Position numbers and translations under genes: made by a program
Shown: one piece after another, positions 176-22,171 of the stretch
Layout: every line of letters begins with the position of its first letter
How positions within the stretch are numbered: the stretch's first letter is position 1
The notes under the pieces: generated by a model
What the model was told of the DNA's origin: nothing
Databases searched by the model: none
The model's input: only the letters and a program-made list of their open reading frames with translations
Assembly: GCA_965219085.1 (NCBI GenBank)
Contig: OZ244720.1
Span: 2,464,001 to 2,528,000, forward strand
DNA length: 64,000 nucleotides
DNA from: Dehalococcoidia bacterium
GTDB taxonomy: Bacteria; Chloroflexota; Dehalococcoidia; UBA2979
Direction of reading: 5' to 3'

Positions 176-220
176 CACGCCGACGCGCGCTTGAGCGCGC
201 CTGAAGGTAGGCTGGCCGTC

Positions 221-841
221 ATGGACCCCGAACTGCTCGCTCGCCTCGCCGCCGCCGACTCGCTGCACATCGGGCTGGTGTCTGACACGCACATCCCCGA
301 GGCTGGGCCGACGCTGCACCCGCAGGTCTTCGAGGCGTTCCGGGACGTCGACTGCATCCTCCACGCGGGGGACATCCACGACATCTCGCTCATCGACCTC
401 TTCTCCGAGGTCGCGCCGACGTTCGTCGCGCGTGGCAACGGCGATGACGGCTCGGGCGGGCGGCCCGTCCAGCCCGAGGATCCGAGGCTGCGCGAGGGCT
501 GGTTCCTGGAGCTGGCCGGGCTGCGCGTCGGCATCGCCCACACGGTGCCCGTGCCGGACATCGGGGGGTGGACGCTGGAGCGGGCGATGGAGCGCTACTG
601 CGGCCGCACCGACCTCGACGTGATGGTCTTCGGCGACACCCACACCGAGTGGTGCGAGGAGGTCCGCGGCGTGCTGTGCGTGAACCCGGGCTCGCCGACG
701 CTGCCGCGCAACTACGAGCAGCGCCTCGGGACCATCGCCTTCCTCGATATCGCCGGCGGCACGGCGACCGTGGACATGCGGCAACTGACCGAGGATGGCC
801 ACGAGCCGTTCGACTGGTCGACGTGGAAGAGCCCGCTGTAG
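221..841 (+). CDS. YfcE/MJ0936-family metallophosphoesterase
   Basis: Motifs SDTH, HAGD, GNGD, GDTH, NPGS; ATG at 221 preferred to TTG at 191. Confidence 0.85.
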   Translation: MDPELLARLAAADSLHIGLVSDTHIPEAGPTLHPQVFEAFRDVDCILHAGDIHDISLIDLFSEVAPTFVARGNGDDGSGGRPVQPEDPRLREGWFLELAGLRVGIAHTVPVPDIGGWTLERAMERYCGRTDLDVMVFGDTHTEWCEEVRGVLCVNPGSPTLPRNYEQRLGTIAFLDIAGGTATVDMRQLTEDGHEPFDWSTWKSPL

Positions 842-930
842 CCCAATGTAGCCCGAGCCCTCGACCCGACCGTGCCGACGCTGGTGCGCGCGGTATACCC
901 TGCACGCCGTGGCGAGCGGGGAGGCGCACG

Positions 931-1521
931 ATGGTGGACTACGACGCACGTACGGCGCTCGTCGTCGTCGACGTGCAGAACGACTTCGCGCACCCGGACG
1001 GCGCGCTCTACGTGAGCGAGGCCGGCGAGGCCATCGTCACCGTCAACGAGGAGATCGAGCGCGCCTCGGCGGCCGGCGCGCTCGTCGCGTACACGCAGGA
1101 CTGGCACCCGGAGCACACGCCGCACTTCGCGCCGGACGGCGGCATCTGGCCCGTCCACTGCGTCGGCGACTCGTGGGGCGCGCAACTCCACGACGACCTG
1201 ACCGCGCTCGATGACGCCGCGCGCGTCCGCAAGGGCGTCGATGGCGAGGACGGCTACTCCGGCTTCACCGTCCACGACGTCGAGCGCGACGAGGACGCGC
1301 CGACGGAGCTTGAGGGCCTGCTCCGCGAGCGCGACGTGGAGCGGGTGGTCGTGGTCGGCCTCGCGACGGACTACTGCGTGCGCGACACGGCGCTCGATGC
1401 CGCCCGGCTCGGCTTCGAGACGACCGTGCTTGCGCGCGCGATCCGCGCCGTGAACCTCGAACCCGGCGACGGCGAGCGTGCGCTCGAGGCGATGCGCCTG
1501 GCCGGCGCGCGCATCGAGTGA
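931..1521 (+). CDS. pncA: Nicotinamidase (isochorismatase family)
   Basis: VVDVQNDF, DWHP..H, WPVHCV, GLATDYCV; GGAGG RBS before ATG 931; coupled to pncB. Confidence 0.9.
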   Translation: MVDYDARTALVVVDVQNDFAHPDGALYVSEAGEAIVTVNEEIERASAAGALVAYTQDWHPEHTPHFAPDGGIWPVHCVGDSWGAQLHDDLTALDDAARVRKGVDGEDGYSGFTVHDVERDEDAPTELEGLLRERDVERVVVVGLATDYCVRDTALDAARLGFETTVLARAIRAVNLEPGDGERALEAMRLAGARIE

Positions 1522-2882
1522 GCCCGCCACACAACCGCGAGGCGGCCGCGGGCGTCGACCTCGCGCTGTTCACCGACCTCTACGAGCTGACGATGCTCCA
1601 GTCGTACTGGGAGCACGACCTCCGCGCGCCTGCCACGTTCGAGCTGTTCGCGCGCACGCTCCCTGAGGGCCGCAACTACCTGCTCGCCTGCGGTCTCGAT
1701 TCCGCACTGACGTACCTCGAACGGCTCAGCTTCGGGGCCGAGGCGCTCGCGGCGCTGGAGCGGGTGGGCTTCCCCGCGGGCTTCCTCGACTGGCTCGGCG
1801 AGCTGCGGTTCACGGGCGACGTGTGGGCGATGCCGGAGGGGACGCCCGCCTTCGGCAACGAGCCGCTGCTGGTCGTCGAGGCGCCGATGCCGGAGGCGCA
1901 GGTGGTAGAGACGTACCTCATCAACCAGGTGCACTTCCAGACGCTCGTCGCCTCGAAGGGCGCGCGCGTCGTCACCGCCGCGGCAGGGCGTCCTGTCGCC
2001 GACTTCGGCGGGCGCCGTGCCCACGGGACCGACGCCGGACTGACGGCCGCACGCGCGCTCTACCTCGCCGGCATGGCGTCGACGTCGAACGTGGCGGCCG
2101 GCGCGCGCTACGGCATCCCCGTGACCGGCACCATGGCGCACAGCTACGTGCAGGCGCACGGCGAGGACTACTCGGCGTTCCGCGACTTCGTCGCCACGCA
2201 CCCCGAGACCACGCTGCTCGTCGACACGTTCGACACGCTCGAGGGGGTGCGCACGGTCGTCGCCCTCGCCGAGGAGCTCGGCGACGCGTTCCGCGTGCGC
2301 AACATCCGGCTCGACTCGGAGCCGCTCCGGGAACTGGCCGTCGAGGCGCGGCGCATCCTCGACGCGGCCGGGCTCACCTCCGTGCGCATCATCGCGAGCG
2401 GCGGCCTCGACGAACACGGCGTCGCCGACCTCGTCGCCGCGGGTGCGCCGATCGACGCCTTCGGCGTCGGCACGCGCGCGGTCACGTCCGCCGACGCGCC
2501 GACGTTCGACGCGGTCTACAAGCTCGTCGCGTACGACGGCGAGGGGCGGATCAAGCACTCGACGGGCAAGGCGACGCTCCCCGGCCGCAAGCAAGTGTTC
2601 CGCCAGCGCGCCGCCTCGGGCGTTGCGAGGCGCGACATCCTCGCCCGCGCCGACGAGCGCCACGCGGGCGAGCCGCTCCTCGTGCAGGTCATGCGCGGCG
2701 GGGAGCGCCTACCCGCGGGCGAGGACTCGCTGGAGCGTGCGCGCGAGCGGGCTGCCTCGGAGATCGCACGCCTCCCCGAGCGGCTGCGAGGACTCGATGA
2801 GGCCTCGCCGCCGTACGAGGTGGTGGTCAGCGAGGCGCTGCGCGCGGACGCGGCCCGCCTCGGGCGGGCGTGGGACGATTAG
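1518..2882 (+). CDS. pncB: Nicotinate phosphoribosyltransferase
   Basis: TDLYELTM, DFGGRRAHG, GTMAHS, LLVDTFD, IRLDS, SGGLDE, FGVGT, VYKLV; GTGA overlap with pncA. Confidence 0.93.
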   Translation: MSPPHNREAAAGVDLALFTDLYELTMLQSYWEHDLRAPATFELFARTLPEGRNYLLACGLDSALTYLERLSFGAEALAALERVGFPAGFLDWLGELRFTGDVWAMPEGTPAFGNEPLLVVEAPMPEAQVVETYLINQVHFQTLVASKGARVVTAAAGRPVADFGGRRAHGTDAGLTAARALYLAGMASTSNVAAGARYGIPVTGTMAHSYVQAHGEDYSAFRDFVATHPETTLLVDTFDTLEGVRTVVALAEELGDAFRVRNIRLDSEPLRELAVEARRILDAAGLTSVRIIASGGLDEHGVADLVAAGAPIDAFGVGTRAVTSADAPTFDAVYKLVAYDGEGRIKHSTGKATLPGRKQVFRQRAASGVARRDILARADERHAGEPLLVQVMRGGERLPAGEDSLERARERAASEIARLPERLRGLDEASPPYEVVVSEALRADAARLGRAWDD

Positions 2883-3187
2883 GCCTCGGTCTCGTCGCCT
2901 CCGCACAGTTCCACGCGCGCCTCGACGCCCGGGATGGCTCGCAGCCGTCCGTCAAGCTCGCGGAACGCCGGCGAGGCGCGCCAGGCCAGGGCGGCCTCAC
3001 GCGATTCCCACAAACTCGTCAGCAACAGCGAGCGCCGCGAGATCCATCGGTGCATCCGCACGCAGCCGGGCGCCGTGCGGCCATCGCGTTCGAGGCGGCG
3101 TGCGAGCCAGAACGCGCGCGGCATCGAGCGCATGCGCCGCAGGTGCCAGGCGGTCAGCAGCAGGACGGGGGCCGTTGGCGGTTGCAT
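2879..3187 (-). CDS. Small ABM/dimeric alpha-beta barrel-like protein
   Basis: ~102 aa from ATG 3187; APG...TSLWESREAALAWRASP pattern typical of ABM-like proteins. Confidence 0.55.
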   Translation of the reverse strand: MQPPTAPVLLLTAWHLRRMRSMPRAFWLARRLERDGRTAPGCVRMHRWISRRSLLLTSLWESREAALAWRASPAFRELDGRLRAIPGVEARVELCGGDETEA

Positions 3188-3203
3188 GCGCCGACGGTAG
3201 CAC

Positions 3204-4286
3204 TCAACCGAACTCGCCGAGGATGTGCGCGAGCAGGCGCAGCATCCGCCACCCGTCGCGCGCCGCGTGGCGCAGGTTCCCCGGCTGCGGCTCGACGTGG
3301 TCGAAGAGGTCGAGGCGATGGTAGAGGGCGGGCTCGTGCGCTGCGGCGAGCGCCTCGGACTCCACCCACGGCACGAACGCGTCGGCGCGGTCATGCAGCA
3401 GGTAGAGTGGGGCGCGCAGGCCGTCGATGTGGCGGCTCGGGCTCACCCCATCGAGGTTCGCGCGCGGCACCGGCCCGAGACCATCCAGGAACGCCTCGGC
3501 CTCCTCGATCGTCGCCCCGTCGGCCAGCGCCTCGAAGACGGCACGCCCCGGCTCATCGAGCGACGCGAGGAGGGTGTTGCGGACGGCGCGCTCGGAGATG
3601 CCCGCTGGGTCCCACGCCTCGACGCCCTCGGGGCCGCGGAAGCTCCGCGAGAGCACCGAGGCGGCGAGGCTCGCGGCGTCGTAGTACGGCCCGATCGCGA
3701 CGACGAAGGCGACGTCCCCGGCGACCTCCGGCTGCGCGGCGGCGACTATAGTCAGCGATCCGCCGGCCGACAGCCCGACGTAGCCGACTCGGTCCTCGCG
3801 CACGCGCGGGTGCGCCGCGAGCGCCTCGAACGCGGCGGTGAGGCGTCCGATCTCGACGGGCAGCACCACCGCGCCATCGAGCTCGTCGGAGTGGGAGAGC
3901 AGCACCGCGAAGCCGATGCGCGCGAGACCCTCGGTGAAGCGCACGACGCGCTCGTCGTCGGCCTCGGCGGGGTCCGCGCCGAGCACGACGATGAGGCCCG
4001 GCGCCTCCCCGTCGCCGGCGGGGAGGGTGAGCACGCCGCTACCGCCCTCGGCGTAGTCGAGCGTGTGCGTCGAGGGGTCGCCGGTGAACCACGTGATGGG
4101 GCGGCCGGGGAGGCGGAACACGACGTCTGCGGTGAATGCGGTGGCGCGCAGCCAGTCGTGCGCGGTCGGGAGCGCCGCGCCGACGGCCATGAGCGCCACG
4201 AGCATGGTGAGGAAGCGCAGGCGGCGCCGGATGGCCCACGCGTCCATGCGTCGAGGGGCGAGTCGGCGGGGGTCGAGGCGGCGCAT
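3204..4286 (-). CDS. Membrane-anchored alpha/beta hydrolase
   Basis: N-terminal TM helix, GLSAGG nucleophile elbow, HDRADAFVP, DLFDHV; start uncertain. Confidence 0.7.
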   Translation of the reverse strand: MRRLDPRRLAPRRMDAWAIRRRLRFLTMLVALMAVGAALPTAHDWLRATAFTADVVFRLPGRPITWFTGDPSTHTLDYAEGGSGVLTLPAGDGEAPGLIVVLGADPAEADDERVVRFTEGLARIGFAVLLSHSDELDGAVVLPVEIGRLTAAFEALAAHPRVREDRVGYVGLSAGGSLTIVAAAQPEVAGDVAFVVAIGPYYDAASLAASVLSRSFRGPEGVEAWDPAGISERAVRNTLLASLDEPGRAVFEALADGATIEEAEAFLDGLGPVPRANLDGVSPSRHIDGLRAPLYLLHDRADAFVPWVESEALAAAHEPALYHRLDLFDHVEPQPGNLRHAARDGWRMLRLLAHILGEFG

Positions 4287-4335
4287 GGCCAGATGGTACG
4301 TCCGGGGCCGAGGGGAGGGGGGCGTTTACCAGGGT

Positions 4336-4364
4336 AGAACGGGCGTTCGTAGACCGGCTATACT
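4336..4364 (+). promoter_or_regulatory. Promoter of TIR gene 1 with LexA-type SOS box
   Basis: AGAAC-GGGC-GTTCG at 4336-4349 lying over the expected -35 position; TATACT -10 at 4359-4364. Confidence 0.6.
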
Positions 4365-4396
4365 CGGCCACGGCGGGGTTGGTGGGGGGAACCACG

Positions 4397-4780
4397 ATGG
4401 CGCGACATGTCTTCCTCAGCTTCGCGGCTGAGGATCAGTGGCTGGCCAACGCCTTGCGCAGGCAGGCCGAGAGCAGGAGCTGCGGCCTCGAACTCCGCGA
4501 CTACGCAGCGTCGGAGCCGTTCGAGCGCGCGCGCCGGATGAACGTCGAACGGCTGATCCGCACGTGCTCCGCGACGATCTGCCTCGTCGGCAAGACGACG
4601 TGGCGCAGCGACGCGGTGAACTGGGAGATCCGCAAGAGCAGGGAGCTCGGGAAGCGGGTCATCGCCGTGCGGCTCTCGTCCGACGTCTCGCGCTACCCGG
4701 AAGCGCTGATCAAGCCGGGCGTGACGATCGTCCCTCGGGACATCGAGGAGGTCGCCCGCGCGCTCGGCGTCGCGGCGTGA
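4397..4780 (+). CDS. TIR domain protein (ThsB/MTH538/DUF1863-like), copy 1
   Basis: VFLSF..ED, CSATICLVG, T..S.AVNWEI (catalytic Glu), GKRVIAV; 127 aa from ATG 4397. Confidence 0.85.
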   Translation: MARHVFLSFAAEDQWLANALRRQAESRSCGLELRDYAASEPFERARRMNVERLIRTCSATICLVGKTTWRSDAVNWEIRKSRELGKRVIAVRLSSDVSRYPEALIKPGVTIVPRDIEEVARALGVAA

Positions 4781-4838
4781 CCGCATGAGCGACCATCACG
4801 GGCCTCATGGGGCGCTCGGCAAGCCGGGAGATGTCGCT

Positions 4839-4861
4839 AGAACGCGCGTTCGGCGTAGACT
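4839..4861 (+). promoter_or_regulatory. Promoter of TIR gene 2 with LexA-type SOS box
   Basis: AGAAC-GCGC-GTTCG at 4839-4852; TAGACT -10-like hexamer at 4856-4861. Confidence 0.55.
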
Positions 4862-4903
4862 GTACTTCGCTGGCGGGCTGGAACCGGGCAAAGGCGGTCA
4901 TCG

Positions 4904-5287
4904 ATGGCGCGAAACGTCTTCCTCAGCTTCGCGATGGAGGATCAGCGGCTTGCCAACGCGTTTCGGGTGCAGGCGACGAACAGCCGCTCCGACCTGGAGT
5001 TCCGTGACTACTCCGTGAAAGAGGCGTTCGAGCACGCGTGGAAGACGAACGTTGAGCGTCTGATCCGGATGTGCTCCGCGACGGTCTGTCTTGTCGGTGA
5101 GTCCACGTGGCGCAGTGATGCGGTCGACTGGGAGATACGCAAGAGCAATCAGCTGGGGAAGCGGCTGATTGCGGTGCGGCTGGGACCCGACGTTCGACTT
5201 CCAACGGCCCTGGGCGAGTTGGGCGTCACAGTCGTTCCATGGGATATCGAGGCGATCATGCGGGAACTCGGTGGCGTGGCCGCGTGA
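4904..5287 (+). CDS. TIR domain protein (ThsB/MTH538/DUF1863-like), copy 2
   Basis: VFLSF..ED, RDYSVKE.F..AWK, SATVCLVG, S.AVDWEI; ~66% identical to copy 1 by manual alignment. Confidence 0.88.
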   Translation: MARNVFLSFAMEDQRLANAFRVQATNSRSDLEFRDYSVKEAFEHAWKTNVERLIRMCSATVCLVGESTWRSDAVDWEIRKSNQLGKRLIAVRLGPDVRLPTALGELGVTVVPWDIEAIMRELGGVAA

Positions 5288-5817
5288 CCACGGATGGGGC
5301 AGCCCTCGAGCGCCGATTGTTCCCCGCGGGTCCGCCACCCGCGGACGATGGAACCGCGCGGTCCTTGCTCGACCAGTACCGGCTGCTGGTGGAGTCGTCC
5401 GAACGGGTGGTGGCTCGGCGTCAGACCGCCAACACGTTCTTCCTCTCCATCAACTCGGGTCTCTTGATCGTCGCGGGCGTCCTGCTTCGCGAAGGCGACT
5501 TGGTCTCCACACTGGGCGGAGGTGTGAGCGCGGGTGTGAGCTTGATGGGGTTCTTCATCTGCTTCGTGTGGTGGCGCATGGTGACGTCCTTCCGCCAGTT
5601 GAACACGGCGAAGTTCAGGATCATTCACCTGCTGGAGGGTCATCTCCCGGCTGCCGTCTTTGCGGCCGAGTGGGATGCGCTCGGCGAAGGACACGACCCG
5701 TCGCTCTATCGCCCCTTCACGCGCCTCGAGACACAGATCCCCATGGGACTCATGGCCCTCTATGGAAGCGCGGCTGTGGCCGGGGTCGTGTTGGCGGCAC
5801 TCAGCGGGATTCGCTGA
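5284..5817 (+). CDS. Small integral membrane protein (2-3 TM), resembling the TIR-associated RipA/octameric membrane protein family; putative effector
   Basis: GTG start overlapping the TIR2 stop (GTGA); LDQYRLLVESSERVVARRQTANTFFLSIN, two TM helices, SFRQLNTAKF.IIH.LE..LP, EW..LGEG, FTRLE..IP and a C-terminal TM. Confidence 0.75.
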   Translation: MTTDGAALERRLFPAGPPPADDGTARSLLDQYRLLVESSERVVARRQTANTFFLSINSGLLIVAGVLLREGDLVSTLGGGVSAGVSLMGFFICFVWWRMVTSFRQLNTAKFRIIHLLEGHLPAAVFAAEWDALGEGHDPSLYRPFTRLETQIPMGLMALYGSAAVAGVVLAALSGIR

Positions 5818-5831
5818 CCCGCCGTTCGCAG

Positions 5832-6263
5832 CTACCCGCCCAGCATCGCGTCCAGCGACAGCGGCCCCGCGCCGCCGAGGATGAGCGCGACGAGGGCCGC
5901 GACCATGAGGATGTCGAGTTCGTAGCCCTGCGCGTTCTCGTTGCCCGCGAACGGCAGGTGCAGCTTCGCCGCGTTCGTGTACGTCGCCACCGCCATGCTC
6001 ACGGCGAGCGGGATCGCGACCCACGACGTGAACAGGCCCGCGAGCAGCGCGAGACCGCCGATGACCTCGAGCGCCACGACGAGGGGACCGAGCAGCCGCG
6101 GGATTGGATAGCCGAGTTCACCGAGCCACGAGCTGAAGCCGCCGACGCCGCGCCGGAACTTGCCGTAGCCGGCGTGCACAAGGATGACGCCGAGGGCGAC
6201 GCGTAGCGGCAGCATCGCCCATCCGGGCTCGCAGGCGCAGAGGGGCTCGGTCAGCACGTCCAC
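5832..6263 (-). CDS. DoxX family membrane protein
   Basis: LRVALGVILVHAGYGK, EVIGGLALLAGLFT, GYEL, GAGPLSLD. Confidence 0.88.
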   Translation of the reverse strand: MDVLTEPLCACEPGWAMLPLRVALGVILVHAGYGKFRRGVGGFSSWLGELGYPIPRLLGPLVVALEVIGGLALLAGLFTSWVAIPLAVSMAVATYTNAAKLHLPFAGNENAQGYELDILMVAALVALILGGAGPLSLDAMLGG

Positions 6264-6371
6264 GGGTCGACTCGCACTACGCGGCGGGCGCCTGCATCGA
6301 GGAGCCCGGCAAGGAGGAGCACTTGCGCGCCGGTGCGGGCGAGGCCCGTCACCGGCGCGTCGGGCCCGGCG

Positions 6372-6836
6372 CTAGCGTTTTGGCAACTGCACCACCGCGG
6401 TGCCCTGCAGTGGCCGCTCGCCTCGCTCGTTCTCGAGGTAGATGTCGAGCTTCACCGTGCCGCCGCCGTCGCCTTCCTCGGTGTCGGTGATGAGGCCGAG
6501 CACCTTGAGTGCGTCGTCGTGCAGCACGGGACGGCGGAAGTTGACGTCGACGAACTCGAGCGTGCCCGCCGTGCCGACCCAGTCGGTGACGAGCTTCGTC
6601 AGCTTCGAGAGGCTGAACGCGCCGGGGACGATCGGCTTGGGGAAGCCGAGCTTCTTCGCGCCCTCGGGGTCCGTAAAGCGCCCGTCGCCGGGGCCGCCGG
6701 AGCCGAGCGCGTCACCCTCGAGCCCGAGGTAGCCGAGCACCTGGTCCATGGTCGGGGTCCACGCGTCCTCGAACTCGTCGCCGAGGTCGACGTCGTCGAA
6801 GTAGTTCTGCGTGGTGGGGTCGACGGTGGGTGTCAT
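6372..6836 (-). CDS. MaoC-like hotdog-fold protein
   Basis: YFDDVDLGDE, A..LGFPKPIVPG, FRRPV..D.L, G.AVV.LP; canonical D-x-N-P-x-H absent. Confidence 0.75.
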   Translation of the reverse strand: MTPTVDPTTQNYFDDVDLGDEFEDAWTPTMDQVLGYLGLEGDALGSGGPGDGRFTDPEGAKKLGFPKPIVPGAFSLSKLTKLVTDWVGTAGTLEFVDVNFRRPVLHDDALKVLGLITDTEEGDGGGTVKLDIYLENERGERPLQGTAVVQLPKR

Positions 6837-7264
6837 TCGCCGACCTGCCTGCGGACCATGAGCTGGTCGGAGTGGGCGACTTCCTCGCCGGCCTCGTCCC
6901 GGTAGGTGAGGCGGCTGACCTGGAAGACCATGGTGCCCGTGCGGCCGGTCTTGGCGTAGACCTCCTTGGCCTGCGCCCAGCCGGTGAGGGTCTGGCCGAC
7001 CTTGACGGGCTTCAGCAGCTCCATCCGCGATCCGGCGTGGAAGCCGGTGTTGCCGAACTTCACCTTCGGGTCCGGGCCGCCGCGGAAGCGCAAGCGCTGC
7101 AGGACGCTCGGAGGCACGAAGCCCTGCTCCGTGTAGCGCGGGTTGGTCTCACCCATGAGCTCGCAGTAGCGCGCCACGGTCTCTGCGTCGACGGTGATGG
7201 TGCCGACTTCCTCCTCGATGCCGATGACGCTCGCGTCGTATTCGAATACTGCTTCTTCGGTCAT
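6833..7264 (-). CDS. MaoC N-terminal/FAS1-like hotdog-fold protein
   Basis: YCELMGETNP.Y, FHAGS, PVKVGQTL, KTGRTGTMVF. Confidence 0.8.
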   Translation of the reverse strand: MTEEAVFEYDASVIGIEEEVGTITVDAETVARYCELMGETNPRYTEQGFVPPSVLQRLRFRGGPDPKVKFGNTGFHAGSRMELLKPVKVGQTLTGWAQAKEVYAKTGRTGTMVFQVSRLTYRDEAGEEVAHSDQLMVRRQVGE

Positions 7265-8022
7265 ACCGCCTCTTCCTCGAGCGTTTGCTCGATAGTCACT
7301 GGATAATAGTCGCCCGTGGCCAGTTGCTCCACGAGGTCCTCGAGGGTGGCTATAGGCTGGGCGAACGCCGTCAGGCAGCGCCCGATCGCGCTGACATAGT
7401 GGGCGTCGCTGCCGCCGACCTGACCGAGCCCGTGCTGCTCGGCGAACTCCGCGCCGATGCCGTTCTCGTGGTCCGAACTGCCGCCGTTGAGCGCCTCGAC
7501 TGCTTCGACGAACTCAAGGCTGTGCCCGTTCGCCACGTGCTCCGCGATGCCGATGCTCGGCCGGCCGGCGTGCGCGGCCACGGCGAAGCCGCCGGTCTCG
7601 CGGGCGATGCGGAACACGTCGGCCGGCGGCAGCCGCGTCGAGGAGAGGTCGAAGTGGCGCGCGAAGTCGTCGGTGATGCCGTAGACCAACACGTGCCCGA
7701 CGGTCGTCTCGACCTCCGCGCCGCGCAGCACGACTGCCTCGTACTGCTCGGAGATCGCCGCGTAGTCGACGTCCGGGTCGAACTGGCGGTGTTCGGTCAG
7801 CACGAAGCCGTCGATGTGGTAGCCGCGCCTGCGGCGGGAGGCGATCCACTTGAGATAGCCCTCGACGGTCCCGCCGGCGTCGTCCGACGCGTCGGTCGAG
7901 TGGGAGTGGAGATCGACGTAGAAACGGCGTCCGGCGATGAGATCGTCCTTCCGGCGGGCAGGCGCGGGCTCGCCATTCTCGGCAGCGCGCGGCGCGGGCG
8001 TCAATCGGACGCCGCCGCTCAC
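7261..8022 (-). CDS. PHP-domain metallohydrolase
   Basis: DLHSHS, LTEH, GAEVETTVGH, AAH, GGSDAH; GTG start overlapping the menC stop. Confidence 0.85.
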   Translation of the reverse strand: MSGGVRLTPAPRAAENGEPAPARRKDDLIAGRRFYVDLHSHSTDASDDAGGTVEGYLKWIASRRRRGYHIDGFVLTEHRQFDPDVDYAAISEQYEAVVLRGAEVETTVGHVLVYGITDDFARHFDLSSTRLPPADVFRIARETGGFAVAAHAGRPSIGIAEHVANGHSLEFVEAVEALNGGSSDHENGIGAEFAEQHGLGQVGGSDAHYVSAIGRCLTAFAQPIATLEDLVEQLATGDYYPVTIEQTLEEEAV

Positions 8023-9122
8023 CCCTCGATGGCGATCCAGGGCCCCGTCGCCGCCGCGTCGAGCGCGGCTGCGTCGAGCGCGACGCCGAGACCGGGGTGA
8101 GCGGGCACGGGCAACACACCCCCGATCGGTCGCGGCGGCTCGGCGACGATGTCGGCGGCGAGGTGGTCTGCAGTCCCCAGGCCGTGCGCCGCATCGGGCA
8201 GCGCGTCGAAGGCCGGGATTGCAGCGGCGAGGTGGAGCGCCGCTGCCACGCCGATGCCGGCGTCGAACGTCGTCGTGACGATGCACGGGACGCCTCGCTC
8301 CGCGGCCTCGCGGGCGAGGGCGAGCGCGGGCCGGATGCCACCGAGCCGCATCGGCTTGAGCACCAGCGCCCCGACCGCGCCTGCGGCGAGCAGGCGGCGG
8401 CCATCCTCGATCGAGGTGACGCCCTCGTCCGCCGCGATGCGAGTCGAGGACTCCCGGTGGATCCGCGCCAGCGCCTTGTCGGCGCCGACGGGGACCGGCT
8501 GCTCGACGAGTTCGACATCGCAGGCGGCGAGCCGCGCGAGCGTGGCGGCGGCGGTCGGCTCATCCCAGCCGCCGTTGGCGTCCAGGCGCAGGCGAGCCTC
8601 GGGCAGCGCTTCGCGGACGGCCTGCACGCGGCGCACGTCGTCGTCGGGGGGCCTGGCGGCGACCTTGAGCTTGAACGTGCGGAAGCCCGCCGCCCACGCC
8701 TCGCGCACCTGCGCGAGCGCCAGCTCCGGCGGCCCGTCACTGATGACCGCGTTGGCCGCCACGGTCGCGCGAGGGTGCTCCGTGAGCAGCGCTGCCACGG
8801 ATAGGCCGCGCTGCTTCCCTTCCAGGTCGAGCTGCGCCACGTCGAGCGCGCAGCGCAGCGCGGCGACGCCGAGGCCGCCGAGGTCGTCCGGGATGCCGCC
8901 GAGGAGGTCGCGCGCGTGCACCTCAAGCAGCCGCAGCACGTCGTCCGCGTCGCCCTCGCCGAACTCGGGGAGCGGCGAGGCTTCGCCGACCCCTCGCAGG
9001 CCCGAGCCGTCGATGAGTTCGACGACGACGCCGGCGCGGTACGCGATCGCAGCGCGTGCGGTCTGCATCGGCGCGCGCATCGGGAGGCGGAACGGGCGGT
9101 AGCGGACGCCGACGAGGGTCAC
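8019..9122 (-). CDS. menC: o-succinylbenzoate synthase (enolase superfamily)
   Basis: GEASPLPEF, FKLKV, RLDANGGW, VEQP, AADE, VLKP, HGLGT; in men cluster; start approximate. Confidence 0.88.
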   Translation of the reverse strand: MTLVGVRYRPFRLPMRAPMQTARAAIAYRAGVVVELIDGSGLRGVGEASPLPEFGEGDADDVLRLLEVHARDLLGGIPDDLGGLGVAALRCALDVAQLDLEGKQRGLSVAALLTEHPRATVAANAVISDGPPELALAQVREAWAAGFRTFKLKVAARPPDDDVRRVQAVREALPEARLRLDANGGWDEPTAAATLARLAACDVELVEQPVPVGADKALARIHRESSTRIAADEGVTSIEDGRRLLAAGAVGALVLKPMRLGGIRPALALAREAAERGVPCIVTTTFDAGIGVAAALHLAAAIPAFDALPDAAHGLGTADHLAADIVAEPPRPIGGVLPVPAHPGLGVALDAAALDAAATGPWIAIEG

Positions 9123-9136
9123 GACGACCGTCCCGC

Positions 9137-10051
9137 TTAGACGGCGAGGCCGACGGCGAGCAGCACGCCGAGCACGAGGTGCAGGCGCGCCGTCGCGCGC
9201 AGCGCCGCGTTGAGCGTCGGGCCGTCGGTGCTGGTCATGACCGCGCGCACGGGCGAAACGGCGAGGGGGATGCTCAGCCACGCGAGCAGCGTCCACGCGC
9301 CGAAGCCGTCGATTGGCGCGAGCGCGGCGGCGGTGAGGTACGCGGCCGCCACGGTCGCGACGAAGAGCCAGCGCGCGGGCTGGCGGCCGACGATCACGGC
9401 GAGCGTGCGCTTGCCCGCGGCCTCGTCGGTCTCGATGTCGCGGATGTTGTTGACCATGAGGATCGCCGTGACCGTGCAGCCGACCGGCACCGCGGCGGCA
9501 ACGGCCGCGGCCGTGATCGCCTCGGCCTGCACGTAGTACGTGCCGACCACCGCGACGAGGCCGAAGAAGATGAACACGAAGACGTCGCCGAGGCCGTGGT
9601 AGCCGAACGGCCACGGTCCACCCGTGTAGGCGAGCGCGGCCAGCATCGAGGCGACACCCGCGGCGACCACCGGCCAGCCGGCCACCGCGACGAGGTAGAG
9701 CCCCGCCAGCGTCGCGATGCCGAACGCGACCACCAGGCCGCCGATGACCTGTCGTTCGCTGAGGATCCCGAGCTGCGTGACGCGCGGCGGGCCGATGCGG
9801 TCGGCGGTGTCCGCCCCTCGGCGGAAGTCCGAGACGTCGTTGGCGAGGTTCGCACCGACCTGGATGGCGAGCGCGCCGAGCATGGCGGCGGCCGCCGGGC
9901 CGGCCTGAGCCTCGCCCGCGTGGAGGGCCACGGCCGTGCCGACCACGACGGGCGTGGCGGCGGCGGTGAGCGTCGGCGGGCGGGCGGCCAGCACCCACGC
10001 GCCGAGCCGCGAGGGGCGGCCGTCGGCGTCCGGCTGCGAGGCCTCCTGCAT
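9137..10051 (-). CDS. menA: 1,4-dihydroxy-2-naphthoate polyprenyltransferase
   Basis: AARPPTL, NLANDVSDFRRGAD, YTGGP.PFGY.GLGD, NNIRDIETD..AGKRTLAV. Confidence 0.95.
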   Translation of the reverse strand: MQEASQPDADGRPSRLGAWVLAARPPTLTAAATPVVVGTAVALHAGEAQAGPAAAAMLGALAIQVGANLANDVSDFRRGADTADRIGPPRVTQLGILSERQVIGGLVVAFGIATLAGLYLVAVAGWPVVAAGVASMLAALAYTGGPWPFGYHGLGDVFVFIFFGLVAVVGTYYVQAEAITAAAVAAAVPVGCTVTAILMVNNIRDIETDEAAGKRTLAVIVGRQPARWLFVATVAAAYLTAAALAPIDGFGAWTLLAWLSIPLAVSPVRAVMTSTDGPTLNAALRATARLHLVLGVLLAVGLAV

Positions 10052-20878: not shown

Positions 20879-22171
20879 CAGGGTGCTGAAAAAGGCGCGG
20901 CCATCTGGCAGGATAGCGAAGGCGGCGGGGGCGTAGCCTGGGAGGCAGCCCCGTGCGAGGCGACGCCGAGCGCCAGACCAACATGTTGCTGGCGGTGACG
21001 CCGGACTCCTTCATCCCGGACGACCACCCGATCCGACGCATCAAGCCGATCGTCGATGCAGCGCTGCAGCGGCTCTCGCCGCTCTTCGGCACGATGTACG
21101 CAACGAGCGGGCGGCCCTCGATCCCGCCCGAGCACCTGCTCAAGGCGAGCCTGCTGATCGCGCTCTACTCGATCCGCAGCGAGCGCCAGTTCTGCGAGCG
21201 GCTGCGCTACGACCTGCTCTTCAAGTGGTTCTTGGACCTCAACATCTCAGACGCGCCGTTCGACGCCTCGAGCTTCTCGAAGAACCGCGAGCGCCTGCTC
21301 GCAGCCGATGTCGCGCGCGCCTTCTTCGCCGAGGTGGTGGCCGAGGCAAAGCGCCGCCGGCTGCTCTCCGCCGAGCACTTCACCGTGGACGGGACGCTGC
21401 TGGAGGCCTGGGCCTCGCTCAAGAGCTACCGCCCGCGCGACGGGCAGGAGCCACCCCCGGGCGGACGCAACCCGGACGTGGACTTCCGCGGGCGGCGGCG
21501 CAGCCGCGATACGCATAGCTCCGGCACCGACCCGCAGGCGCAGCTGTACACAAAGGGAGCGGGGCAGACGGCGAAACTGAGCTACATGGGCCATCTGCTC
21601 ACCGAGAACCGTCACGGCCTGGTGCTGGACGTGGAGTTGACCGAGGCGAACGGGTACGCCGAGCGCGAGGCCGCGGTCACGATGCTGGAGCGCAGCGTGA
21701 GCGGCTGCGGGACGCTGGGCGCCGACCGCGGCTACGACACGCGCGACTTCGTGGCGGAACTGCGCGCGCGCGGCGTGACGCCGCACGTGGCGCAAAACGA
21801 CCGCGGCCGCCGCAGCGCCGTGGACGGGCGCACCACGCGGCATCGCGGCTACAGGCAGAGTCAGCAGCGGCGCAAGATCGTGGAGCAGGTCTTCGGCTGG
21901 ATGAAGACCGTGGGCGGCGGGCGCAAGCTGCGTTTCGTGGGCCGCGAGCGCAACCGCGGCTGGCTGGAGCTCACCGCCGCCGCCTACAACCTCGTGCGCA
22001 TGGCCAGGCTCGAACTCGCCCCTGCGTAGGCGCAGTGCGCCCTCCGGCCGGTCCGGGAGCCCTCAGAGGCCCCCGGGGGCAGGTCAGGAGGCCACCATCA
22101 CGAAGCCGGAGGCGGCTTCAAGCCGCCTCTCGCCACTCCGAGACCCCGGAAGGCGCTTCTTCAGCACCCTG
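20879..22171 (+). mobile_element. IS5-like insertion sequence, 1293 bp, intact
   Basis: TIRs CAGGGTGCTGAAAAAG (20879-20894) and CTTCTTCAGCACCCTG (22156-22171), 15/16 match; CTAG direct repeats at 20875-20878 and 22172-22175. Confidence 0.93.
20953..22029 (+). CDS. IS5/IS1182-type DDE transposase
   Basis: GRPSIPPE, SIRSERQ, VDGT, GADRGYD, Y..SQ.RRK.VEQVFGW.K, AAYNLVR. Confidence 0.93.
   Translation: MRGDAERQTNMLLAVTPDSFIPDDHPIRRIKPIVDAALQRLSPLFGTMYATSGRPSIPPEHLLKASLLIALYSIRSERQFCERLRYDLLFKWFLDLNISDAPFDASSFSKNRERLLAADVARAFFAEVVAEAKRRRLLSAEHFTVDGTLLEAWASLKSYRPRDGQEPPPGGRNPDVDFRGRRRSRDTHSSGTDPQAQLYTKGAGQTAKLSYMGHLLTENRHGLVLDVELTEANGYAEREAAVTMLERSVSGCGTLGADRGYDTRDFVAELRARGVTPHVAQNDRGRRSAVDGRTTRHRGYRQSQQRRKIVEQVFGWMKTVGGGRKLRFVGRERNRGWLELTAAAYNLVRMARLELAPA

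Follow-up and report, generated by a model that had tools for sequence, protein, structure and literature searches.

A 15-bp element of the form TAGAAC-N4-GTTCG stands before each of two neighbouring TIR genes in the 64,000-base stretch of Dehalococcoidia DNA analysed here (the window), and from the way in which it is retained in relatives while the surrounding bases change, it is a real cis-element under selection. The reading that we favour, with a probability of roughly 0.55, is that the element is an SOS (LexA) operator placed on each promoter of a Thoeris-like module of TIR and 8xMP genes in one lineage of the Chloroflexota, 8xMP being a helical membrane protein. Such an arrangement suggests that the TIR-plus-membrane module is switched on by DNA damage.

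The boxes and the genes of the cassette

The features of the cassette and its flanks are these:

3204-4286, minus strand: alpha/beta-hydrolase gene (weak match), the divergent flank
4335-4349: box 1, TAGAACGGGCGTTCG, palindromic GAAC-N4-GTTC, over the -35/spacer position of the putative TIR1 promoter
4359-4364, plus strand: putative -10 hexamer of TIR1, TATACT, 9 nt 3' of box 1, conserved in relatives
4397-4780, plus strand: TIR1, a 127-aa ThsB-type TIR protein (PF08937, 3.8e-14; PADLOC ThsB, 4.7e-11)
4838-4852: box 2, TAGAACGCGCGTTCG, upstream of TIR2; its 12-nt core is a perfect palindrome
4856-4861 and 4860-4865, plus strand: two overlapping candidates for the -10 hexamer of TIR2, TAGACT and TGTACT, the latter in register with the TATACT/TATAGT of relatives
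4904-5287, plus strand: TIR2, a 127-aa ThsB-type TIR protein (PF08937, 1.9e-14; PADLOC ThsB, 2.6e-13)
5284-5817, plus strand: 8xMP, a 177-aa helical membrane protein (PF24838, 4.6e-34)
5832-6371, minus strand: DoxX gene, the convergent flank and end of the cassette (PF07681, 5.3e-17), syntenic in six relatives

Both 15-mers lie exactly where the sequence-only reading had placed them, and the GAAC-N4-GTTC cores within them (4337-4348 and 4840-4851) are the sole perfect sites on either strand of the window. The number of such sites is not by itself significant, since shuffled versions of the window contain 0.58 perfect sites on average and at least two in 11 of 100 shuffles; it is placement and conservation that matter. 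With respect to placement, the boxes start 62 nt (box 1) and 66 nt (box 2) upstream of the ATG codons at 4397 and 4904 and end 48 and 52 nt upstream of them, which agrees with the distance of about 50 bp first proposed; the first TIR start had been set one base away from the true ATG at 4397. The claim that the two upstream regions have otherwise diverged is also correct, in that only the box and an adjacent GTAGAC can be aligned between TIR1 and TIR2, while the coding regions align well.

The two TIR proteins are paralogues, with 65% identity. Their family profile matches the solved TIR chains 8fz9, 9b7d and 6lhy, and the family-invariant glutamate (Glu77 of TIR2) aligns with glutamate E85 of ThsB, the E85Q mutant of which is reported to lose defence (10.1101/2021.01.06.425286). 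The GTG start codon of 8xMP at 5284 overlaps the stop codon of TIR2 (GTGA), such that TIR2 and 8xMP probably form one operon. The proposed gene order, TIR genes followed by a gene for a membrane protein, is borne out by the PF08937 and PF24838 matches, and in the latter case the assignment is clear, with 117.6 bits against a gathering cut-off of 30 and a match spanning profile positions 1-133 of 136. The monomer model of 8xMP is all-helical (mean pLDDT 76), with three long hydrophobic helices at residues 22-69, 76-118 and 146-176. A search for solved relatives of 8xMP returned no PDB sequence match and 0 fold matches at E <= 0.001, and PF24838 is the only family that it matches, there being no PADLOC model and no Macro, SLOG or DUF2270 match; NCBIfam gave no match for TIR1, TIR2 or 8xMP. 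The nearest ESM Atlas clusters of 8xMP also carry PF24838, and one of these bears the automatic name 'RipA family octameric membrane protein'. The link to RipA is an automatic cluster name only, as distinct from the Pfam membership of 8xMP itself, which is clear.

The cassette has a G+C content of 63-69%, against 72-77% in its flanks, and the remainder of the window is unremarkable high-GC chromosomal DNA, which includes suf and menaquinone genes and genes for Lon and methylmalonyl-CoA mutase; no lexA, recA or SOS genes are found within the 64 kb. A gene for nicotinate phosphoribosyltransferase, an enzyme of NAD salvage, is located at 1314-2882, 1.5 kb from the TIR genes, and this arrangement is kept in relatives, although the proximity of a salvage gene to NAD-using TIR genes may be a coincidence. 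A DDE transposase gene (DUF772 and DDE_Tnp_1) is found at 20917-22029 amid housekeeping genes, and a similar one adjoins the TIR genes of a related locus (L004).

Two relaxed scans of the window were also made. GAAC-N4-GTTC with at most one mismatch gives 26 matches, six of which, besides the two boxes, fall outside the listed genes, none of them convincing; CGAAC-N4-GTTCG with at most two mismatches gives 82 matches, with 56 expected. An RNA element was considered and rejected, as positions 3900-6400 have no Rfam match and the palindrome is too short for a stable hairpin.

Conservation and promoter context of the box

A single TIR-alignment scan of the genome collection gave 43 related loci. 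Six of these (L001, L009, L011, L015, L016 and L018) are collinear with positions 206-10,000 of the window at 83-89% DNA identity and a seventh (L003) is collinear at 72-76%, all seven being Chloroflexota/Dehalococcoidia records, which places the host in that lineage and not among the actinobacteria. Every TIR gene in the seven syntenic genomes has a perfect box upstream, making nine promoters with two each in L001 and L016; the boxed genes include those of TIR2 type in L001, L016 and L003. An eighth, non-syntenic Dehalococcoidia locus (L002) has a box with one mismatch before its TIR2-type gene. In the protein tree these genes belong to a Chloroflexota clade of 14 TIR genes (support 99/96), within which TIR1 falls in a clade of seven rows (support 100/100). 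The perfect box is found before all seven TIR1-type genes and before four of the seven other members, and with the single one-mismatch copy this leaves two genes, those of the Dehalococcoidia loci L004 and L005, that have none. In other words, the expectation that the box would be conserved upstream of homologous TIR cassettes holds inside the host lineage, with 11 perfect boxes and one imperfect box at 14 genes. Moreover, some 140 kb of DNA (the window plus eight loci from related high-GC Chloroflexota) contains 12 perfect sites, and 11 of these are located 56-71 nt upstream of a TIR gene's start.

Recent common descent might be thought sufficient to account for this pattern, the boxes then being functionless leftovers of that descent and of gene duplication. 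TIR1 and TIR2 are indeed paralogues, the distance from box to box (503 nt) is close to that from one TIR start to the other (507 nt), and six relatives match this region of the window at 83-89% DNA identity. Against this, the bases next to the box have changed freely while the box has not. In TIR1-type promoters (n=7), one of the 15 columns of the box is variable, compared with 18 of 20 in the immediate flanks (Fisher p = 7e-7), and in TIR2-type promoters (n=5) the figures are 4 of 15 and 20 of 20 (Fisher p = 3e-6). When the promoters are anchored on the box, the share of the commonest base is 0.97 within the box itself (15 positions), 0.53 in the 30 nt on its upstream side and 0.56 in the 9 nt that follow it. 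The box is also retained in the more distant L003 and, nearly intact, in the non-syntenic L002, and it has been kept through the duplication that gave the 65%-identical paralogues. Mere inheritance is, accordingly, an explanation to which we give almost no weight.

Within the box, variation occurs at N4 positions 7-9 only, together with one half-site change in L002. Changes confined mainly to the N4 spacer are the pattern expected for two half-sites that are contacted. The left half is AGAAC in all 12 sites, and there is an invariant G at the first N4 position. Invariance extends likewise to the T and A of box positions 1-2 but not to their mirror positions, from which it follows that part of the constraint may lie in promoter (-35) function or in a different protein.

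The surroundings of the box are correspondingly uniform. All 12 promoters have a common layout, in which the box is followed after 8-9 nt by a -10 hexamer and the start codon comes a further 30-45 nt on; from the first base of the box to the TIR start the distance is 56-71 nt throughout. TATACT occupies the same register in 10 of the 12, the others being the second promoter of L001, with TATAGT, and the second promoter of the window, with TGTACT. Both hexamers named in the sequence-only reading are present, and TATACT is conserved in relatives; TAGACT is a doubtful -10 for TIR2, since the alignment register favours TGTACT, although either could be the one that is used. A simple sigma-70 scan returned no canonical promoter. 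TIR1 apparently has its own promoter, in which TAGAAC, 17-18 nt upstream of TATACT, would lie over the -35/spacer.

This location raises the question of whether the element is a promoter feature only, that is, a -35-like TAGAAC with a conserved spacer and no repressor. TAGAAC is at the normal -35 distance, its T, G and A agree with TTGACA at three positions, and conservation is stricter in the left half than in the far right flank. The right half, on the other hand, is difficult to account for in this way, because GTTCG falls in what would be a change-tolerant spacer and yet is invariant in 11 of 12 promoters, and because 8 of the 12 copies are perfect 12-nt palindromes. The neighbouring hydrolase gene offers a further comparison. 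GATGGTAC (minus-strand reading TACCAT) is conserved 6 nt before the hydrolase ATG, in window positions 4287-4310 and at the same place in the seven syntenic loci; it resembles the -10 of a leaderless transcript, which suggests that the hydrolase has a promoter of its own. As this promoter is without any -35, a strict -35 is evidently not a general need in this genome. Overall, a purely promoter-based explanation appears improbable. The same comparison bears on which gene the box might serve, since box 1 lies 49-63 nt upstream of the divergent hydrolase start, and with what seems to be a leaderless promoter of its own the hydrolase is not a likely target of the box.

Beyond the boxed Chloroflexota clade, the box is absent upstream of the TIR gene in 31 of 31 loci, and it cannot be regarded as a trait of the TIR-8xMP family as a whole. 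The five perfect sites in Vicinamibacterales loci, all at position 5075, fall within coding sequence. The box is likewise found in none of the three actinobacterial plasmid relatives, whose hosts have GAAC-N4-GTTC as their LexA motif; these comprise a TIR-8xMP pair from Paenarthrobacter, a TIR-caspase pair from Pseudarthrobacter and an 8xMP gene from Streptomyces. Inspection by eye of the gammaproteobacterial loci for the LexA motif of their own lineage gave no CTGT-N8-ACAG upstream. From its absence in other phyla and in the actinobacterial plasmids, control through the box would be lineage-specific.

Two other palindromes were encountered in the course of these comparisons. In Vicinamibacterales (L014, L020, L025, L041 and L043), the TIR promoters contain a different palindrome, CTGATGTGGTACGATCAG or close variants of it, some 40-60 nt before the start. 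It overlies a TGnTACGAT extended -10, its spacing is unlike that of the E. coli LexA box, and it may be a lineage-specific operator. In L005, a 60% G+C Dehalococcoidia record, AGAAC-N4-GTTCG is found on the minus strand at 6970-6983, about 140 nt upstream of a 180-aa open reading frame (6289-6831, minus strand) that has no Pfam or NCBIfam match and is situated between brxL and the TIR-8xMP pair. The reading frame could be a further member of the same regulon in a defence island.

LexA and other candidate binders

The extended LexA consensus has CGAAC as its left half, and LexA of Dehalococcoides is reportedly a protein that binds the GAAC-N4-GTTC motif. LexA recognises the same motif in B. subtilis, where it is called the Cheo box, in M. 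tuberculosis and in Gram-positive bacteria generally (PMC4234289, PMC3323433), and the box matches it exactly, as the sequence-only reading had maintained. The Firmicutes and Actinobacteria, to which that reading had also appealed, do not include the host, which belongs to the Chloroflexota. Compared with the Gram-positive LexA box, the element has an identical 4+4 core and spacing, a right half (GTTCG) that fits the extended consensus, and an apparent overlap with the promoter of the kind seen at repressor sites. It differs in having AGAAC in place of CGAAC at every one of its 12 occurrences and in its G+C-rich N4, and its predicted target is a TIR/membrane module in place of a repair gene.

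Some guidance as to the nature of the binder is given by the genes around the box, which occurs in three contexts. One is the interval that separates the hydrolase gene from TIR1, another is the TIR1-TIR2 interval, and the third, in L002, has a symporter gene on one side and the TIR gene on the other. No Pfam-recognisable transcription-factor gene stands beside any of the three, several of the neighbouring open reading frames being without a Pfam match. Three unrelated contexts with no local regulator gene identified point to a dimeric repressor that is encoded globally. A scan of 128 neighbouring open reading frames in the related loci found no lexA, recA or uvrA.

The main rival to LexA is then another global regulator, in other words a different dimeric transcription factor encoded elsewhere, for example a regulator of defence islands or of stress, to whose operator the LexA likeness would be coincidental. 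The AGAAC half-site is in keeping with such a protein, as are the invariant TA at positions 1-2 and the invariant G of the N4, all of which exceed the LexA core, and as is the AGAAC-N4-GTTCG site before the reading frame beside the BREX genes in L005. Furthermore, regulators that are known to link defence to DNA damage, namely DdaA, CapW and BrxR, are described as WYL-type and not as LexA (PMC12392091). No Pfam-recognisable regulator gene adjoins the box in any of its contexts, however, and the exact 4+4 core and spacing of a known global repressor would be an unlikely coincidence. We consider another regulator unlikely, and LexA to be the better candidate.

If LexA is the binder, the mechanism that we infer, from damage induction through TIR chemistry and the role of 8xMP to a function in defence, would be as follows. 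TAGAAC-N4-GTTCG would be an operator that overlaps the -35/spacer, with the -10 TATACT 8-9 nt downstream, and one copy would drive TIR1 while the second would drive the TIR2-8xMP operon. In undamaged cells the LexA repressor of the host would bind the box and hold the module silent or at a low level. DNA damage, prophage induction or phage replication would then lead to RecA-stimulated self-cleavage of LexA, such that both promoters are released. The TIR proteins, which keep the catalytic glutamate, would convert NAD+ to a signal or consume it, and 8xMP would serve as the membrane effector, as in Thoeris systems with membrane effectors.

The TIR-8xMP module and damage-linked immunity

In 26 of the 43 related loci a TIR gene and an 8xMP gene are direct neighbours, with overlapping reading frames in the window and in several relatives, and such pairs are found in the Chloroflexota, Binatota, Acidobacteriota, Pseudomonadota, Gemmatimonadota, Rhodothermota, Thermodesulfobacteriota and SAR324. 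The TIR-8xMP pair, which recurs in several phyla, is a candidate two-gene defence system. The copy number of both genes varies. L004 contains a second, diverged TIR-8xMP pair (2111-2985), L017 has a second TIR gene after 8xMP (5962-6393), and L029 and L030 each have a second 8xMP gene before the TIR gene (4420-4940). BREX genes lie beside L005, L013 and L041, an SMODS cyclase gene beside L004 and a methylase gene beside L023, and toxin-antitoxin, PIN, Fic or HNH genes are near several loci; many other loci are situated amid housekeeping genes.

In four of the relatives syntenic with the window (L009, L011, L015 and L018), the TIR2-8xMP segment is missing and approximately 0.8 kb of non-homologous DNA is found in its place, leaving a boxed TIR1 without an adjacent 8xMP. 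In L009 this DNA (5425-6139), flanked by TIR1 and DoxX, carries minus-strand genes for a Gp49 (HigB-like) toxin and for an HTH_3 antitoxin. The replacement of TIR2-8xMP in four relatives marks the site as a small variable defence hotspot and indicates that the boxed TIR1 can stand alone. Since TIR1 survives in these genomes without an adjacent effector, it may, if LexA is indeed the binder, be an SOS-induced enzyme in its own right, either NAD-consuming or signal-making.

Partners also differ among the plasmid-borne relatives. The Paenarthrobacter plasmid pYJN5-2, a conjugative plasmid, has, in the region 1-2935 of L046, a TIR-8xMP pair slightly more than 1.5 kb downstream of a caspase-family gene, and on a Pseudarthrobacter plasmid (L045) a related TIR gene is directly followed by a caspase-family gene. 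Caspase-family partners in one case and 8xMP in the other point to effector swapping around related TIR proteins.

In this regard, the comparison with Thoeris is instructive. Thoeris loci typically contain several thsB genes (10.1101/2021.01.06.425286), and membrane effectors are known for the type II and type V systems; a recent survey lists 29 putative types of effector, of which many are membrane proteins (10.64898/2025.12.03.692087). The module shares with type II (Macro-TM) and type V (DUF2270/ThsF) a ThsB-type TIR with the glutamate, followed by a small multi-helix membrane protein, and with Thoeris generally the presence of more than one ThsB-type gene per locus and, at some related loci, defence genes as neighbours. 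It differs in that each TIR gene has a boxed promoter of its own, in that the partner belongs to PF24838, and in that the boxed TIR1 is without an adjacent 8xMP in four relatives. Neither Pfam nor PADLOC matches 8xMP to any of the effector types described (SIR2-SLOG, Macro-TM, SLOG, caspase-like and DUF2270). The accessible part of the effector survey mentions neither LexA nor SOS (10.64898/2025.12.03.692087).

Precedents do exist for the coupling of immunity to the DNA-damage response. WYL regulators provide this coupling in the form of the activator DdaA in Moraxellaceae and the repressors CapW and BrxR (PMC12392091). The predicted arrangement is similar in that immune genes would be tied to DNA damage through a promoter site. 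It is different in that the known regulators are WYL-domain proteins that are often encoded beside the system, whereas here the site looks like one for LexA, a global repressor, and a search of the neighbouring genes identified no local regulator. In E. coli, a survey mentions defence genes in LexA-linked regulons, and transcriptomes in the same work show defence expression to be negatively correlated with recA overall (10.64898/2025.12.14.694197). Among the open-access and bioRxiv papers that were searched, screened by title and the opening of the abstract, no description was found of a LexA-controlled TIR system or of a LexA-type operator on one; a search of the same papers found nothing relevant on 8xMP or an octameric membrane protein. 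The most specific form of the proposal, that LexA directly gates a module of uncharacterised type composed of ThsB-type TIR proteins and 8xMP, such that TIR signalling would be damage-licensed and not constitutive, is put forward tentatively, and on the sequence comparisons given here we regard it as somewhat doubtful.

To our knowledge, bacterial TIR systems have mostly been studied under foreign or inducible promoters, and their regulation in their own hosts is largely unknown. Were the LexA reading to be true, TIR/NAD signalling genes would join an SOS regulon, and the DNA-damage response might be linked to NAD-derived signalling. The analysis also flags the TIR-8xMP pair, with its unstudied membrane partner. 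Should the binder prove not to be LexA, the element would still be a well-defined operator with which to find a new regulator in an uncultured lineage. The SOS response is the moment of prophage induction in a population, and a conserved LexA-type operator on the TIR promoters of one clade would offer a concrete and testable case of SOS-primed immunity.
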